Of a stretch of DNA of 64,000 nucleotides, positions 1,650-11,029 are shown piece after piece; the first letter of the stretch is position 1; each line of letters begins with the position of its first letter. The stretch lies in the sequence record PP328843.1; one strand, written 5' to 3'. The notes under the pieces are model-generated. The model was not told the DNA's origin and searched no databases. It saw nothing but the letters and a program-made list of their open reading frames with translations. The position numbers and the translations under genes were made by a program. The DNA comes from Escherichia phage 215Ecol030PP.

Positions 1650-2066
1650 TTAAATGTAAATATTTTTGCCGTAATACTTATACCAGTGTGGCTTCATTAA
1701 AATTTTTTCATCGAGTCGTTGTTGACTCAACTTAATAGCTGATTTACATGGATTATAATCATTTTTCCATTCTACTGGAATATCGCTGATGTCAGGAACT
1801 TCAGTATCTTTTATACTGAACCCGCGTTTTAAGCATTCCGTTATAATGTCCGATTGACGCTTTCGCAAAAATTCTAACTTATCGTAAAAGAAAGTAACAT
1901 GACCAGAACCTAAAATAAATTTAGAAGATATTTTAAAATCTTTAACGCGCTTACCGTTTGCCACATGCTTACGAACTATACCAAAAACACGCGGCAATTC
2001 ACGGTATTCTGCGATTAAATGTTGATCAGCAAGTTCAGATACTAAAGTCAAATTAATACGAGTCAT
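1650..2066 (-). CDS. denV: endonuclease V (pyrimidine-dimer DNA glycosylase), 138 aa
   Basis: N-terminus [17 protein letters not shown]...[10 protein letters not shown] matches T4 endonuclease V; same length. Confidence 0.9.
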
Positions 2067-2125
2067 TTTATCCCTCCAAGTAACTGTGAATATACTATCA
2101 CAGTTTTAGGAGAAAGTAAACAACT

Positions 2126-5578: not shown

Positions 5579-5755
5579 TTATACTCCGGATAGTTTGTAA
5601 ACTATTTCAACATCGCCTTTTGCTGCTTTATAACCTTCAGCCCAAGATACAACCGAGTTTTTATCCGAAGATTCAAATTCTGGCATTGGGCTTTCGCCAA
5701 TGTTCACGCAGTATGTTTCTTCATTTTCGTCGAACCAAATAATTAAAGTAGTCAT
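5579..5755 (-). CDS. small hypothetical protein (~58 aa, below ORF-track cutoff)
   Basis: SD GGAGAAATAAATG then open frame MTTLIIWFDENEET... Confidence 0.35.
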   Translation of the reverse strand: MTTLIIWFDENEETYCVNIGESPMPEFESSDKNSVVSWAEGYKAAKGDVEIVYKLSGV

Positions 5756-5824
5756 TTATTTCTCCGTTTTCTGTATTTGTTTTGATAAGTCTATAATAAC
5801 ACCGTCCTTGGCGTTTGTACACAA

Positions 5825-6100
5825 TTATTTCATATTATTGAAATATTCTTCTGCGATTTCATCGTTATCATGGTAAACTTTAGAAGACAGTTTAACATAA
5901 CCTTCAGCAGTGAACATGTTAATCACAACCTTTACAGTATACCACTGACCATCTTCATTACCCATTACTGCGTAAGTTTCAAACATCGGATGATCAGGAC
6001 CGATAACTTTAATATCATTCACTGTACGACCAAAATCTTCTGAAACGCATTTCATAAAGAAGTTGAACAGTTCGCCGTAATTATCCATTTCGTTCTCCAA
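5825..6100 (-). CDS. hypothetical protein (91 aa)
   Basis: ORF track; preceded by early-promoter-like element. Confidence 0.5.
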   Translation of the reverse strand: MENEMDNYGELFNFFMKCVSEDFGRTVNDIKVIGPDHPMFETYAVMGNEDGQWYTVKVVINMFTAEGYVKLSSKVYHDNDEIAEEYFNNMK

Positions 6101-6131
6101 GTTGTTTTCTGTATCAGTAGTTGATAGTTGT

Positions 6132-6161
6132 ATAGTACCATAGAAGAACAGGGATGTAAAC
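6132..6161 (-). promoter_or_regulatory. early-promoter-like element GTTTAC-N18-TACTAT upstream of gene 5825-6100
   Basis: same hexamers and spacing as three copies in the IP locus. Confidence 0.45.
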
Positions 6162-6294
6162 CGTTTTGTGAAAAATTTTTTAAAAAGTTTTGGGGGAATT
6201 CTAGGGCAGGGAGGGGCAATTAAAGGATAGGATAATATATTATAAAGGATAGAAACTAAATGATGCCTAGAGAGGCCCGGAAAGGCCTAGATAC

Positions 6295-6322
6295 CAAAAA
6301 GCCCCAACCTTTTGGTCGGGGC
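6295..6322 (-). terminator. intrinsic terminator (GCCCC-stem hairpin plus U-run on minus strand) after gene 6331-6804
   Basis: hairpin GCCCCAACC...GGTCGGGGC followed by T5 on minus strand. Confidence 0.55.
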
Positions 6323-6330
6323 TAAGAATG

Positions 6331-6804
6331 TTATTTGATTTGTTTAGCAGACCAAATGCGGTCTTTAATAATTTTTTGGATGTCTTCAACATACTCAAGA
6401 GAGTGAACATGTGGATTATCTTTGAAACTATAAGCACGGGCTAACTTTTGGCCTTCGGTTTTGATTACTAAAAGCTCTTTAAGGATAGCTTCATATTTGG
6501 AGATAATTCCTTTAACAATATTTTTCTCTTGTGTGACTTTAGGATCTGCTTTAGGAGCAGGTTTACCTGAAGCCTTTGCAAAAGCAGCTCCAGTAGCAAC
6601 TAAACTTTTCCAAGCCATACTAACTGCATTCCCTGTAAATCCTTCGGCTTTCATATCACGAGCAAATTGGAATCGTGATTCATCGGAAGCATCTTTATAG
6701 GAATATTTACCCGCGGCAATGGCAGCTTTTGCAACAGCTTGAATTTCAGTGCTAGATGCTTCATTTAACACCGCTTCATTTAAAAATTGAGTATATGATT
6801 TCAT
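6331..6804 (-). CDS. internal-protein-like protein with capsid-targeting-sequence-like N-terminus MKSYTQFLNE (157 aa)
   Basis: ORF track 6331..6981 begins with TTG inside upstream tRNA-like element; ATG at 6804 has SD AGGAAA; late promoter TATAAATA upstream. Confidence 0.6.
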   Translation of the reverse strand: MKSYTQFLNEAVLNEASSTEIQAVAKAAIAAGKYSYKDASDESRFQFARDMKAEGFTGNAVSMAWKSLVATGAAFAKASGKPAPKADPKVTQEKNIVKGIISKYEAILKELLVIKTEGQKLARAYSFKDNPHVHSLEYVEDIQKIIKDRIWSAKQIK

Positions 6805-6842
6805 CTTATTTCCTGTTTTAATTCGGGGTTTTAATATACTAA

Positions 6843-6850
6843 TATTTATA
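6843..6850 (-). promoter_or_regulatory. late promoter TATAAATA upstream of IP-like gene 6331-6804
   Basis: exact motif on minus strand between terminator hairpin and SD. Confidence 0.5.
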
Positions 6851-6852
6851 CT

Positions 6853-6879
6853 AAAAAGCCCCAACCTTTCGGTCGGGGC
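6853..6879 (-). terminator. intrinsic terminator at 3' end of the tRNA/small-RNA transcription unit
   Basis: near-duplicate of the 6295-6322 hairpin, T-run on minus strand. Confidence 0.55.
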
Positions 6880-7196
6880 TAAGCCTTGCGGCAACCTTGT
6901 CGGGGTTCCACCTGCTAAGGCAAGTGTTTGTACGAAACGCCGGGATTCGAACCCGGTTATTAAGCAGTTGACGCTACTCAATATTTTTAAAAGGCCATAT
7001 CTCGACCATATCCGAACGTTCCGTCAAAAACGCTACTCGGCTTATGGCAAAGATATTTCCTCGAATCGATAATTCGGTGCGCCGTTTCTGCTGTGATATA
7101 AGGGGGCATTAACAAAACATAAAGATTTATTAATGCCAGTCCTTAAACAGGGAACATCAGTCCGACGACTTGCCGGTAGCGACCCGGCTTCTTGTC

Positions 7197-7272
7197 TGGT
7201 CGAGGCAGTAGGGATCGAACCTACGACCCAGGACTTAGAAGGTCCTTGCTCTTCCTTCTGAGCTATGCCCCG
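7197..7272 (-). tRNA. tRNA-Arg (anticodon TCT), CCA encoded
   Basis: hand-folded cloverleaf: 7-bp acceptor, D stem GCTC/GAGC, anticodon loop CTTCTAA, T-loop TTCGATC. Confidence 0.8.
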
Positions 7273-7276
7273 TAAT

Positions 7277-7352
7277 TGGGGTGACCGATGGGAGTCGAAC
7301 CCATGACTACGAGAATCACAATCTCGAGTTCTACCAACTGAACTACGGCCAC
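7277..7352 (-). tRNA. tRNA-His (anticodon GTG), CCA encoded
   Basis: hand-folded cloverleaf; anticodon loop TTGTGAT; T-arm ATGGG/CCCAT. Confidence 0.75.
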
Positions 7353-7443
7353 ATTAATACCTACTCCAACAATCAAGATGTCTTCACACGAAATTAAGAG
7401 AAGAGTGATCAGTTCAACCCCTATAATCGCGTCAAGTAGATAT

Positions 7444-7465
7444 TAATGTGACAGTTGTCACAAAT
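7444..7465. promoter_or_regulatory. perfect CRP-consensus-like palindrome TGTGA-N6-TCACA (TAATGTGACAGTTGTCACAAAT)
   Basis: both CRP half-sites and 6-bp spacing exact, A/T flanks; lies 3' of tRNA-Asn. Confidence 0.4.
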
Positions 7466-7466
7466 T

Positions 7467-7541
7467 TGGCGGACGTGATAGGATTCGAACCTATAACCAA
7501 TCGCTTAACAGGCGATCGCTCTGCCATTGAGCTACACATCC
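7467..7541 (-). tRNA. tRNA-Asn (anticodon GTT), CCA encoded
   Basis: hand-folded cloverleaf; anticodon stem ATCGC/GCGAT, loop CTGTTAA. Confidence 0.75.
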
Positions 7542-7545
7542 AAAT

Positions 7546-7632
7546 TGGTGGGGAGTGATGGAGTCGAACCACCCGAGTCGCAATGACAATGGATTTACAG
7601 TCCACACCGCTACCTCTACGGGATAACTCCCC
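7546..7632 (-). tRNA. tRNA-Tyr (anticodon GTA), type II with long variable arm, CCA encoded
   Basis: perfect 7-bp acceptor GGGGAGT/ACTCCCC; anticodon loop CTGTAAA. Confidence 0.75.
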
Positions 7633-7645
7633 TTAATTCTTAATT

Positions 7646-7720
7646 TGGTGGCCCTGGGTGGAATTGAACCACCATCTGGCGATTATGAGTCGCTTGCTTG
7701 AACCTTCCAGCTACAGGGCC
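7646..7720 (-). tRNA. tRNA with anticodon CAT (Met or lysidine-modified Ile, as T4 tRNA-Ile)
   Basis: perfect acceptor GGCCCTG/CAGGGCC, T-arm GGTGG/CCACC, anticodon loop CTCATAA. Confidence 0.75.
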
Positions 7721-7728
7721 AAATTTTC

Positions 7729-8214
7729 TTATTTTATGTAATATTTATTTAAAAACTTTCTAGCTTGAGTATGGCTAACATTTATAGCGTTTGCATAATT
7801 TTTAATAAAACCTCGTTCATCCATATTAAAATTTTCTAATATTTTTAATCGTCTAGTTATCTCATCTTGACTTAAGGTACTTGCATTATTTTTAGAAATT
7901 TTTTCTAAGGACTGTGCCGAGTGTTTTCGACCATTAAAATTAAAATTTTTAGATTTTGGAGGAAATCTAGCATTTAATCTCGCATCTTTTGTATTTTGAT
8001 TATTAGTTGCGCAATATATGTTATTTAATGAATATGGTCCTTTATCGCCGAAACGGCACATGCAGTATTCATGACCCTTTCTTCCACGCTTATCATAATT
8101 TCCCGTTGATTTCCACCAATGCAGCCATTCATCAAAAGTTAAATTCCATTCAATGTTTCTACGTATAGCAGAATTCCGCTGAGAAATATATTTTGCATAA
8201 TCTTCTTTCATCAC
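7729..8214 (-). CDS. putative HNH-family homing endonuclease embedded in the tRNA cluster (161 aa, GTG start)
   Basis: motif GHEYCMCRFGDKGPYSLNNIYCATNNQN resembles HNH core; basic C-terminal DNA-binding-like tail. Confidence 0.5.
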   Translation of the reverse strand: MMKEDYAKYISQRNSAIRRNIEWNLTFDEWLHWWKSTGNYDKRGRKGHEYCMCRFGDKGPYSLNNIYCATNNQNTKDARLNARFPPKSKNFNFNGRKHSAQSLEKISKNNASTLSQDEITRRLKILENFNMDERGFIKNYANAINVSHTQARKFLNKYYIK

Positions 8215-8258
8215 AAATTTCTCTACTTATTCAATACACTGAGCTAAATCAGCAAAAC

Positions 8259-8348
8259 TGGCGGAGGCGATAGGATTTGAACCTATGAGTCGCCGGAGCG
8301 ACTGCCGGTTTTCAAGACCGGTGCATTAAACCACTCTGCCACGCCTCC
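8259..8348 (-). tRNA. tRNA-Ser (anticodon TGA), type II, CCA encoded
   Basis: acceptor GGAGGCG/CGCCTCC; anticodon stem CCGGT/ACCGG, loop CTTGAAA; long variable arm. Confidence 0.8.
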
Positions 8349-8350
8349 AG

Positions 8351-8424
8351 TCTCCGCGGCAGGATTTGAACCTACGACATTCTGCTCCCAAAGCAGACGC
8401 TCTACCAAACTGAGCTACACGGAG
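8351..8424 (-). tRNA. tRNA-Pro (anticodon TGG), CCA not encoded; 2 nt from tRNA-Ser (dimeric precursor geometry)
   Basis: D stem GCTC/GAGC; anticodon stem TCTGC/GCAGA, loop TTTGGGA. Confidence 0.8.
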
Positions 8425-8434
8425 TAAATTAAAT

Positions 8435-8508
<74 letters not shown>

Positions 8509-8513
8509 AAATT

Positions 8514-8600
8514 TGGTGCGAGAAGTGGGACTCGAACCCACAAGGAAATCATTCCGCAGCATTTTAAGTGCTGTGCCTTTACCAATTTGGCCATTCTCGC
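8514..8600 (-). tRNA. tRNA-Leu (anticodon TAA), type II, CCA encoded
   Basis: acceptor GCGAGAA/TTCTCGC; anticodon stem CAGCA/TGCTG, loop CTTAAAA. Confidence 0.8.
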
Positions 8601-8601
8601 G

Positions 8602-8674
8602 CTGGGAATAAAGGACTCGAACCTTTGCATCCTGGAATCAAAATCCAGTGCCTTACCAACTTGGCTAATTCCCA
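8602..8674 (-). tRNA. tRNA-Gln (anticodon TTG), CCA not encoded; 1 nt from tRNA-Leu (dimeric precursor geometry)
   Basis: acceptor TGGGAAT/ATTCCCA; anticodon stem CTGGA/TCCAG, loop TTTTGAT. Confidence 0.8.
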
Positions 8675-8771
8675 ATTATTAACAAAGGCTCTTAAGCAAG
8701 AACCCTTGATGATAGAGGGTATTAATCAGTGCGATATGAGTTAATAATAACAAATAATTCTTAAAGCATAT

Positions 8772-9059
8772 TTACCATTTATAATAATACATATTTACGA
8801 TGCATTCAAGACCCAAAGGATTCTTGAAAATATCATATTCAAGAGGACCTTTTTCTGTTTCAATAAAGAAATCAAAATTTACTGTATTAAATTTACGTTC
8901 TTCCTTCACTAATTTAACTTGAGAAGATGAACGGTCAATGTAAACCTTTTCAACTTCAAAACATGTTAAAATGCCATAATCATCAATCAAAGCTTTAGCC
9001 GCGTCTTGATCATATTTATATCCATTTTCAACGGACGATACTTTCGCATAAAGAATCAT
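8772..9059 (-). CDS. hypothetical protein (95 aa)
   Basis: ORF track. Confidence 0.5.
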   Translation of the reverse strand: MILYAKVSSVENGYKYDQDAAKALIDDYGILTCFEVEKVYIDRSSSQVKLVKEERKFNTVNFDFFIETEKGPLEYDIFKNPLGLECIVNMYYYKW

Positions 9060-9061
9060 TA

Positions 9062-9460
9062 TCAGCCTTCATCAACAATAGTGTGAGTATTAGCATTTAC
9101 GATTTGCCACCAATCAAAGCGATTAGAATCCATCGGTTTGTTTTCATTTTCTTTGATAATGTCACGGAGTTCATCTTCAGAGAATGCTTTAGCAATTAAA
9201 TCGGTATACCCACCACGGGGATAATAATTATCACCTGCAAACAAAAGGAAATTTACCTTCCCGGAAGCAACATATGCTTCCTTAGGATACTTGTTTCCTG
9301 CGTGGTCAACCACTTCAATATAACGGTAAGGAATATCGGTTCTTTCAACCCATTGCCATGCCGCCGCAGGGGAATCGAAAGCATCTACACCTAAACGATT
9401 ATCTTCATCTTTAGACGGATTATTTTCGTAATCCGCATATACATAATATTCAACGTTCAT
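9062..9460 (-). CDS. hypothetical protein (132 aa)
   Basis: ORF track. Confidence 0.5.
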   Translation of the reverse strand: MNVEYYVYADYENNPSKDEDNRLGVDAFDSPAAAWQWVERTDIPYRYIEVVDHAGNKYPKEAYVASGKVNFLLFAGDNYYPRGGYTDLIAKAFSEDELRDIIKENENKPMDSNRFDWWQIVNANTHTIVDEG

Positions 9461-9648
9461 TATTCACCTTTAGAAATTTTATCCATAACAATAGCAATTA
9501 AACCAATTAAAAATGCTACTACAAGTGAAAAAACATTTTCTGCCGTAGTCAATAATCCGCATATAAATCCAACAAACATTGAAAAACTGAAAGCGGAAGC
9601 AGAAATTGCAATAGCAACATTTCGAATTAATTCACAACGTTTCATTTT
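9460..9648 (-). CDS. small membrane protein (62 aa from MKRCEL, 2 hydrophobic segments)
   Basis: ORF track 9460..9786 trimmed to Met with SD GAGGAG; upstream part is the promoter element. Confidence 0.5.
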   Translation of the reverse strand, partial: KMKRCELIRNVAIAISASAFSFSMFVGFICGLLTTAENVFSLVVAFLIGLIAIVMDKISKGE

Positions 9649-9673
9649 ATTCTCCTCAGTAGTAGATAGGGTA

Positions 9674-9703
9674 ATAGTATCACTACCCCATCTAAAAGTA
9701 AAC
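9674..9703 (-). promoter_or_regulatory. early-promoter-like element GTTTAC-N18-TACTAT, copy C
   Basis: repeated element with overlapping inverted repeat. Confidence 0.45.
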
Positions 9704-9937
9704 TTATTTTTTACGAAAAATTGATTTATTTTCTGCTGCCCATTTTTCAATAACTGCAGCAGGACCAGTAACAACAATTTTATCACCGTAATCTTCTGCG
9801 GCGAGTTGACCGAAATTATCTAATGCATCACGAAGAACTCCATGAGGCATTTCACCCATTTTATCTTTCTTGCCAGTGTAAATAAACTCAACTTTTACAT
9901 CAGCAGTTTCAGCAATAAATTCTTGGTAAGTTTTCAT
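9704..9937 (-). CDS. internal protein with canonical capsid targeting sequence MKTYQEFIAE (77 aa)
   Basis: N-terminus identical to T4 IP-type CTS; own promoter element upstream. Confidence 0.7.
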   Translation of the reverse strand: MKTYQEFIAETADVKVEFIYTGKKDKMGEMPHGVLRDALDNFGQLAAEDYGDKIVVTGPAAVIEKWAAENKSIFRKK

Positions 9938-9971
9938 TTTGATTTCCATTTGGTTTTGTTTTGATAGGGTA

Positions 9972-10001
9972 ATAGTATCACAACTAAAACCCTATGTAAA
10001 C
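9972..10001 (-). promoter_or_regulatory. early-promoter-like element GTTTAC-N18-TACTAT, copy B
   Basis: repeated element with overlapping inverted repeat. Confidence 0.45.
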
Positions 10002-10013
10002 AACTTTGTGAAA

Positions 10014-10271
10014 TTATTTTAAATCTTCTAATCGTTTCTTCATCTTAGAGCCATTTTTAGCAATTTCTCCTGCATCGGAGCATAATGCTAAAAGTGCTTT
10101 AACTTTAGTTTGGTCTCCTTTAAAAGATGAAGGATCGACCGCAGCAGCAAGTTCTTTAATACGAGAGAAAAGACGCTCAGCTTCAGCTAAAGCCATTCCA
10201 AGCTTTACTTCCATACCGTGGGAAGATTCAGTGATAGTAGTTTTTGTAGCAAACTCTTTGAAAGTTTTCAT
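10014..10271 (-). CDS. internal-protein-like protein, CTS-like N-terminus MKTFKEFATKTTITE (85 aa)
   Basis: ORF track; SD AGGAAA; own promoter element upstream. Confidence 0.6.
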   Translation of the reverse strand: MKTFKEFATKTTITESSHGMEVKLGMALAEAERLFSRIKELAAAVDPSSFKGDQTKVKALLALCSDAGEIAKNGSKMKKRLEDLK

Positions 10272-10302
10272 TTTTATTTTCCTAATTAATTTTGATGAGG
10301 TA

Positions 10303-10332
10303 ATAGTATCACTACCTCATCAGTATGTAAAC
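10303..10332 (-). promoter_or_regulatory. early-promoter-like element GTTTAC-N18-TACTAT, copy A
   Basis: repeated element with overlapping inverted repeat GATGAGGTA/TACCTCATC. Confidence 0.45.
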
Positions 10333-10344
10333 AACTTTGTGAAA

Positions 10345-11029
<685 letters not shown>

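Follow-up and report, generated by a model that had tools for sequence, protein, structure and literature searches.

In the 64,000-nucleotide (nt) window of Escherichia phage 215Ecol030PP analysed here (record PP328843.1), which judging by its sequence is Tequatrovirus DNA, three early promoters set between the small genes of the internal-protein (IP) locus are each overlapped by a stem-loop. We propose that these elements are composite cassettes of early promoter and stem-loop, in which the hairpin provides the upstream cistron's 3'-end element and replaces a terminator for which there is no room, and we put the probability of this proposal at about 0.7. The three promoters are referred to as P1, P2 and P3 (the copies beginning at 10303, 9972 and 9674, respectively), and a fourth copy, which has no stem-loop, as P4 (beginning at 6132). 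The coordinates of all features are given in Table 1.

An earlier, sequence-only reading of the window had noted four copies of GTTTAC-N18-TACTAT and regarded them as T4-type early promoters, and both points were borne out by our analysis. An exact scan of the window returned the same four positions, all on the minus strand, against a mean of 0.01 matches in dinucleotide shuffles, and none of 100 shuffles reached four. Read along the minus strand, each copy consists of an A/T-rich tract, GTTTAC, a 14-nt spacer, (G/A)TG(A/G)TACTAT, a ribosome-binding site and ATG. The -35 hexamer GTTTAC (positions -36 to -31) is part of the T4 early consensus, in which the -10 element spans positions -12 to -7 (Nolan 2006, PMC1524935); it is exact in all four copies, and the -10 element carries a TG extension in each of them (GTGATACTAT in P1-P3, ATGGTACTAT in P4). 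A promoter scan reads the copies as TTTACA-17-TACTAT with the TG present, that is, as sigma-70-like, the 25 nt upstream of the -35 are 84-88% A+T, and a Shine-Dalgarno (SD) sequence and an ATG follow in the correct orientation for the open reading frame (ORF). P1 matches the element that precedes T4 ipI base for base; taken together, P1, P3 and P4 are identical or near-identical to the sequences upstream of T4 ipI, trna.4 and e.8, and P4 is the orthologue of the T4 e.8 promoter. In phage fPS-90, all three sites orthologous to P1-P3 are annotated as 'predicted early promoter'. These features support the prediction that P1-P4 are strong sigma-70-dependent early promoters of the T4 type. The sequence-only reading had also described a downstream TTTGTGAAA/A-rich tract as common to all four copies. 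Such a tract exists, but in promoter terms it lies upstream of the -35, as TTTCACAAAG with an A/T run, and in the alignment it is present at P1, P2 (10002-10023) and P4 (6162-6183) but absent at P3, where the -35 begins directly after the stop codon TAA at 9704-9706.

A stem-loop overlapping the early promoter is present at P1-P3 and absent at P4. When windows of 71 nt were folded as sense-strand RNA, P1, P2 and P3 reached -20.2, -18.1 and -19.8 kcal/mol with z-scores of -4.6, -4.1 and -3.1, respectively, and the antisense RNA folded more weakly at each of them (-13.7, -16.7 and -11.0 kcal/mol, the last with a z-score of -1.1). P4 gave -3.3 kcal/mol and a z-score of +0.8, and is therefore taken to be without a hairpin. 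The inverted repeat that had been seen around the -10 region of three copies is thus confirmed, and the paired differences reported between its arms are correct for the most part. The P2 hairpin reads ATAGGGT/ACCCTAT plus an inner TAGT/ACTA. P1 and P3 share one register, in which they differ by two both-sided pair changes (A-U to G-C and U-A to A-U) and by one G-C to G·U change. The exception is the third arm pair, AGATAGGGTA/TACCCCATCT, which is imperfect, as it contains one A·C mismatch on the plus strand; on the transcribed-sense (minus) strand, this position is a G·U pair. A search of positions 5700-10900 with the Rfam 15 covariance models, with E-values up to 1, returned only tRNAs and sub-threshold chance matches, leaving the hairpins without a family.

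Table 1. Coordinates of the predicted promoters, hairpins, terminators and genes in the 64,000-nt window
Feature	Position	Strand	Description
57B homologue	10345..10803	-	Upstream of P1; phrog_755, E 1e-67; stop codon 12 nt from the -35
A/T-rich TTTCACAAAG tract, UP-element-like	10333..10354	-	Upstream of the P1 -35; overlaps the last 57B codons; member of a repeat family
Predicted early promoter P1	10303..10332	-	Between 57B and the first IP gene; -35 GTTTAC at 10327-10332; extended -10 GTGATACTAT at 10303-10312
P1 hairpin	10293..10322	-	13 pairs, UGAUGAGGUAGUG/UAUUACCUCAUCA, loop AUAC; -10 hexamer in loop and inner stem; DNA fold -8.1 kcal/mol
Internal head protein (Ip5/ipV-like)	10014..10271	-	phrog_3499, E 1e-49; starts MKTFKEF; stop codon 12 nt from the P2 -35
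Predicted early promoter P2	9972..10001	-	Between the two IP genes; exact match, TG-extended; annotated in fPS-90
P2 hairpin	9964..9995	-	AUAGGGU/ACCCUAU and inner UAGU/ACUA helix; register unlike P1 and P3; DNA fold -5.5 kcal/mol
Internal virion protein (ipVI-like)	9704..9937	-	phrog_8111, E 1e-52; starts MKTYQEFIAE; annotated ipVI in PST
Predicted early promoter P3	9674..9703	-	Between the second IP gene and trna.4; exact match; annotated in fPS-90
P3 hairpin	9663..9694	-	14 pairs, one G·U in the variable part (UAGAUGGGGUAGUG/UAUUACCCUAUCUA)
trna.4-like small membrane protein	9460..9645	-	Downstream of P3; phrog_1692, E 6e-35; T4 and RB14 annotations
Repeated terminator copy	6857..6880	-	Terminator scan and repeat search
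Canonical intrinsic terminator	6300..6323	-	10-pair G+C-rich stem, then UUUU; between the upstream ORF and P4; terminator scan
Predicted early promoter P4 of the e.8-like gene	6132..6161	-	Hexamers and spacing as in P1-P3; without hairpin

A fifth, relaxed copy of the motif, GTGTAC-N18-TATTAT, is located at 5793-5822 on the minus strand, 2 nt past the stop codon of the e.8-like gene and upstream of an ORF at 5579-5755. It has only a weak hairpin, which lies inside the spacer (-6.9 kcal/mol); its T4 orthologue has a clear hairpin across the -10 (ATAGGCT.ATGAT/ATTATGAGCCTAT).

Selection on pairing in the sense-strand RNA

T4-type early promoters were gathered irrespective of hairpins from IMG/VR, from metagenome scans, from anchored scans and from annotated phage loci. 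The IMG/VR and metagenome scans used the pattern GTTTAC-N14-GTGATACTAT, and the anchored scans used the trna.4 start and the IP leader. The IP-leader pattern, AAATGAAAACNTWYMAAGARTT, is too degenerate and matched mostly unrelated contigs, and its loci entered solely the regex-filtered promoter survey. About half of the listed metagenome matches are chance occurrences in unrelated DNA and served as a context control: among the matches listed, 49% of the unique sequences in a promoter-like context folded at -12 kcal/mol or below, compared to 7% of the chance matches elsewhere. In 55 clusters, the native combinations of spacer and downstream sequence gave a mean of -8.40 kcal/mol and chimeric combinations a mean of -5.48 kcal/mol, with none of 2000 permutations reaching the native value, and the complementarity is therefore specific to each instance and does not follow from the consensus. 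When promoters were defined more broadly (207 unique regions forming 99 clusters), 24% of the clusters had a helix score of at least 7 across the -10, as opposed to 5.6% (standard deviation 2.5) in shuffles, and 10% had a score of at least 9, as opposed to 0.4%, which corresponds to excesses of approximately 4-fold and 25-fold. The covariation score, computed on an unselected, ungapped alignment of 81 promoters, was 0.251 in the register of P1 and P3; shuffles gave 0.182, with none of 500 reaching the observed score, and slid registers gave 0.124-0.156. At the orthologous trna.4 promoter, a hairpin is kept in Tequatrovirus, Dhakavirus and Jiaodavirus with stems that differ (GGGCT/AGCCC, GGGTT/AACCC, GGGATA/TATCCC and GGTAGGACTA/TAGTCCTACC), the first two being related by a C-G to U-A exchange. 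The sequence-only reading had claimed selection on a secondary structure beyond the promoter hexamers and had suggested that an alignment of the copies and homologous loci be tested for covariation. The claim is supported by the native and chimeric folds, the helix excess and the covariation, and in the alignment of 81 promoters the arms do covary.

In the helix search, G·T and A·C were scored equally, and pairs lying wholly in the conserved 10-mer were left out. Distinct helix positions comprise 21 G·U and 7 A·C pairs on the sense strand (background fraction 0.43, p = 0.0008), and variants in close relatives agree with this bias: P3-type elements show A to G changes opposite U, and P1-type elements show C to U changes opposite G. 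Folding with DNA parameters gave weak structures (-4.7 to -8.3 kcal/mol) whose loops measure about 10 nt. The strand bias and the weak DNA folds, together with the weaker antisense RNA, make a sense-strand RNA hairpin more likely than a DNA cruciform. One might argue that the structure is nevertheless selected in DNA, either as a cruciform or single-strand hairpin that presents the -10 to RNA polymerase or as a recombination or nuclease site through which cassettes are shuffled. The -10 hexamer lies partly in the loop at P1 and P3, the crossovers of natural chimeras fall in the shared loop, and Arbiol 2010 (PMC2839356) placed one mini-circle crossover in the loop and speculated on a protein that binds DNA at the stem-loop. 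As GTGATACTAT(TACC) is the longest stretch of identity, crossovers would be expected in the loop in any case. In addition to the weak DNA folds, a cruciform would require pairing on both strands, against which stands the 21:7 ratio of G·U to A·C, the helix has no fixed register with respect to the -10, and P4 and many promoters of the same consensus have no hairpin whatsoever. A DNA role intrinsic to the promoter also does not predict the dependence of the hairpin on an abutting upstream ORF, which is described in the next section. We regard selection in DNA as improbable, and a promoter that needs a DNA hairpin was rejected on the grounds of the weak folds, the G·U bias, the unfixed register and the hairpin-less consensus promoters. 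The early promoters of phage N4 resemble this rejected model.

Dyad symmetry over the -10 is typical of repressor operators, and the inverted repeat could accordingly be the operator of a regulator of early transcription that binds DNA in a sequence-specific manner. The arms differ among copies and among phages with complementarity kept, and the register shifts; as arm sequences and register vary, one regulator could not recognise all of the elements. The operator was rejected on account of arm sequences that vary while pairing is kept, and we find it hardly credible. With regard to the options that the sequence-only reading had left side by side, the RNA hairpin is thus upheld by the G·U bias and the weak DNA folds, the cruciform is disfavoured and the sequence-specific operator is argued against.

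The inverted repeats could also be devoid of function, arising as by-products of promoter recombination and of quasi-palindrome (template-switch) mutation that mimics compensatory change. The elements are recombination-prone, chimeras with mismatched arms survive in nature, and a slipped duplication is present inside the element in the IMG/VR contig L079; templated quasi-palindrome mutation is reportedly known in T4 rII from the work of Ripley. Template switching, however, produces complements that are exact by Watson-Crick rules and does not create an excess of G·U biased to one strand. Several further observations would be left unexplained, namely the approximately 25-fold excess of strong helices over shuffles, the retention of unrelated stems at the orthologous trna.4 promoter in three genera and the restriction to promoters with a -35 that abuts an upstream ORF. 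We therefore judge an origin as mere by-products to be quite improbable.

Upstream gene ends and the proposed role of the hairpins

The presence of a hairpin depends on how close the preceding gene ends. Counting upstream ORFs of at least 60 codons on the same strand, we found a hairpin in 20 of 43 clusters in which the stop codon lies no more than 13 nt from the -35, and in 1 of 28 with a distance of 14-150 nt (Fisher p = 5.6e-5). Several stop codons overlap the -35 (…TAGTTTAC), and longer spacers often hold a G+C-rich hairpin followed by a U-run (approximately 10 of 25 by our own reading). In the window, the gap between stop codon and -35 is 12 nt at P1, 12 nt at P2 and 0 nt at P3, all of which have a hairpin; at P4, where there is a canonical terminator but no hairpin, the gap is 169 nt. 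This test of stop codon distance replaced a test based on terminators within 200 nt, in which an inverse relation between hairpin and canonical terminator gave p = 0.002 for unique sequences.

We propose that each cassette would consist of an UP-like tract, the -35 GTTTAC and the TG-extended -10 TACTAT, and would drive one small gene of the locus. An upstream gene that ends 0-12 nt before the -35 would leave no intergenic room, and the hairpin would be placed in the only free positions of the promoter, with the spacer as 5' arm and the stretch between the -10 and the start as 3' arm. Since the -10 spans -12 to -7, the promoter's own transcript should start approximately 7 nt past TACTAT, inside the 3' arm; it could therefore not fold the hairpin, and only read-through RNA from upstream could do so. 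In this read-through RNA, the hairpin may provide the upstream cistron with its 3'-end element and insulate each cassette, be it as an attenuator, as a pause or termination signal (including one that pauses the polymerase for Rho) or as a barrier to 3' exonucleases. We infer that the P1-P3 hairpins may terminate or stabilise the upstream transcripts, for which the link to abutting stop codons gives indirect support. The unit of about 70 nt common to the copies may in addition provide the homology for recombination that swaps IP genes between phages.

A number of points weigh against this proposal. The hairpins of P1-P3 are not followed by a U-run (AAAAUUAAUU, CAAAACAAAA and ACUACUGAGG, respectively), their tails being A/C-rich, and a terminator scan that calls both terminators listed in Table 1 calls none of the three; efficient intrinsic termination by these hairpins is therefore doubtful. 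No hairpin is found in 23 of the 43 clusters with an abutting upstream ORF, and the inverse relation with a canonical terminator within 200 nt is not significant when cluster representatives are used (p = 0.39). The helix does not keep one register relative to the -10, which lies either in the loop or in the 3' arm; the second of these registers is frequent in promoters with a hairpin, but its covariation does not reach significance on the unselected set. Some natural recombinants have partly broken stems, for example the T2 junction at -8.1 kcal/mol, and as they survive, the hairpin is not indispensable. Some of the metagenome hits classed as promoter-like may not be promoters, which may inflate the contrast with sites lacking an ORF, and no usable 5'- or 3'-end maps of the locus were found in the literature searched. 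One might also imagine that hairpins without a U-run do not act as terminators and form a separate class of cassette-boundary RNA elements, which would define and stabilise the 3' ends of single early mRNAs once read-through and processing have taken place, or that they are structure-specific recombination joints with an active part in the exchange of anti-defence (internal-protein) genes; we consider this unlikely.

Hairpins that overlap a promoter are also used as translational switches. In such a switch, the hairpin of the read-through RNA hides the downstream ribosome-binding site, so that translation is confined to proximal transcripts; T4 e, soc, 49 and I-TevI are examples. For T4 late promoters, this principle has been documented (PMC3014915), and helices between spacer and SD sequence occur at other T4-type early promoters (ATCCTCATCA...TGATGAGGAT in L019, L120 and L122; GTTCTCCAGT...ACTGGAGAAC in L154). 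At P1-P3, however, the 3' arm ends approximately 10-20 nt upstream of the SD sequence, and SD and AUG are unpaired in the centroid folds of all three elements as well as in the minimum-free-energy folds of P1 and P2. The minimum-free-energy fold of P3 contains a low-frequency outer helix (0.09 of the ensemble) that pairs GAGGAG with upstream U residues. Sequestration of the ribosome-binding site at P1-P3 was rejected, as SD and AUG lie outside the hairpin, and a translational switch at these promoters appears very improbable. The spacer-SD helices mentioned above are long-range helices (L019 1151-1174, L120 4488-4511, L122 1013-1036 and L154 9410-9427); at these four loci, the ribosome-binding site would be hidden only in read-through RNA, which would amount to an early version of the T4 e/soc/49 device.

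Exchange between copies and neighbouring genes

A 71-nt unit is repeated at P1-P3, and P1 and P2 are 86% identical over it. The P1/P2 repeat runs into the last codons of 57B and of the Ip5-like gene (10345-10360 and 10014-10029), which end in ...ADDLK-stop and ...LEDLK-stop and have GAT TTA AAA TAA in common, and this suggests that past crossovers reached into the upstream ORFs. An N-terminal leader is likewise repeated between the two IP genes. In T4, the element between ipI and trna.4 consists of the 5' half of P2 and the 3' half of P3, joined across the common GTGATACTATTACCCTATC. T2, L047 and L079 carry P2/P1 or P3/P1 chimeras with a crossover in the shared loop and with arms that pair poorly, and in RB14 and L047 ATGGGGT is found in place of ATAGGGT, which allows it to pair with the foreign 3' arm again. 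These chimeras and the restored pairing indicate that recombination takes place inside the elements and that pairing is then repaired. Arm changes that break pairing, which the sequence-only reading had named as evidence against selection on structure, were seen in a few recombinant junctions (those of T2, L047 and L079), and all of these are chimeras. In L079, a T4-like contig, the P3/P1 chimera (2022-2075, minus strand) also contains a tandem duplication of GATACTATTACCTCATCAA, which looks like slippage inside the promoter/hairpin element.

Many Tequatrovirus genomes match the region at 96-98% identity, and an 821-nt core shares 99.9% identity with phage Elenatom and 97% with Yersinia phage PST. 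The locus formed by 57B, the IP genes and trna.4 is hyperplastic, with neighbours that differ between close relatives, and the gene content from 57B to trna.4 varies among the window, T4, RB14, T2, RB68, G50, QL01 and a Klebsiella phage. The 57B homologue is annotated as 'RNA ligase' in most related records and as 'anti-CBASS protein Acb1' in one, and the gene at 10014-10271 is annotated as Ip5 in RB14 and as ipV in PST. The trna.4 start and ribosome-binding site, GGAGAATAAAATGAAACGTTGTGAATTAAT, are near-invariant over three genera, and the promoter spacer and hairpin vary; the trna.4 SD sequence includes GGAG, the RegB cleavage motif.

Upstream of P4, the terminator is present in two copies that are 94% identical as 6291-6326 and 6848-6883 (AGCCCCGACC-NAAA-GGTTGGGGCT-TTTT) and that flank an ORF of 157 amino acids at 6331-6804 on the minus strand. 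The ORF belongs to phrog_2280, a family of unassigned function, and a late-promoter motif, TATAAATA, lies at 6843-6850, just past the upstream terminator copy. The segment 6291-6883 thus looks like a late-gene cassette bounded by terminators; T4 has rnaC and rnaD at this place. Within the tRNA cluster, an ORF of 161 amino acids (7729-8214, minus strand) occupies the position of the T4 homing endonuclease gene segB. Related records list an 'HNH endonuclease' in a 5-kb match that covers this ORF.

Known promoter/stem-loop elements and significance

Combinations of early promoter and stem-loop have been described as PeSLs, in which the stem-loop lies between the promoter boxes or overlaps the -35 or the -10 (Arbiol 2010, PMC2839356). 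Mini-circles arise between neighbouring PeSL copies, and one RB49 stem-loop (PeSL211/210) lowered lacZ expression to an extent comparable to rrnB T1 (Arbiol 2010, PMC2839356). According to the same paper, Repoila 1994 reported 'PeSL-like sequences' at two T-even IP loci, and in these T-even elements T4 early promoters are combined with stem-loops that are weaker, richer in A/T and of varying size. PeSLs were later extended to the pair T4/PST with the consensus TTTACW-N17-TAYWAT (Comeau 2014, PMC4122927). According to these papers, a promoter/stem-loop architecture at the IP locus has been known since 1994, and as PeSL-like elements are published at T-even IP loci, P1-P3 are an instance of a known element at its type locus. 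P1-P3 share with PeSLs the early promoter with a stem-loop, 'overlapping the -10 box' being a named subclass, the extent from the upstream stop codon (with the gaps given above) to the SD sequence and ATG of the next gene, the repetition between small, variable genes in a hyperplastic region, stems with G·T pairs and chimeric junctions that imply recombination between copies. With the PeSL-like elements they also have the IP locus and the phage group (T4/PST) in common.

There are also differences. The PeSLs of RB49 and phi1 have a near-consensus TTGACA and stems of G-runs and C-runs, whereas P1-P3 have GTTTAC and weaker, A/T-richer stems, and the T-even IP elements are termed analogues of PeSLs, not homologues, in Arbiol 2010 (PMC2839356). 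A figure legend of Comeau 2014 (PMC4122927) places the PST stem-loops 'just upstream of the promoter', whereas P1-P3 span the -10. Terminator activity was measured for one RB49 stem-loop only. Like intrinsic terminators, P1-P3 form a stable sense RNA hairpin after a stop codon, in the position that terminators hold in longer spacers, but they have no U-run, and their stems are A/U-richer than those of the two terminators in the window. They resemble the hairpins of T4 e, soc, 49 and I-TevI in that the promoter lies inside the hairpin DNA and the proximal transcript lacks the 5' arm. Those are late promoters with a paired SD/AUG (PMC3014915), whereas P1-P3 are early and have the ribosome-binding site outside the hairpin. 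Lambdoid morons are likewise single accessory genes, each with its own promoter and 3' hairpin, but their regulatory parts are kept separate, are not repeated and are not considered agents of mobility, whereas those of P1-P3 are fused and repeated. Two further articles, on anti-restriction (PMC12373910) and on toxIN evolution (PMC9391042), make no mention of such promoter/hairpin elements. The rule that a hairpin is embedded in the promoter when the upstream stop codon is no more than 13 nt from the -35, and that a canonical terminator is present otherwise, is absent from the examined parts of the PeSL papers and may not have been stated before.

Confirming these elements in a further phage adds nothing categorically new. 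The survey sharpens the picture, as it points to selection on the sense-strand RNA, to hairpins without a U-run, to stop codons that abut the next promoter and to canonical terminators where there is room. Injected anti-restriction proteins are encoded at the IP loci of T-even phages, which rank among the most rapidly changing parts of these genomes, and the repeated promoter/hairpin unit is proposed to be a device by which genes are swapped as self-contained expression cassettes. With this, we provide a testable account of how neighbouring genes may be insulated from one another in very compact phage early regions.

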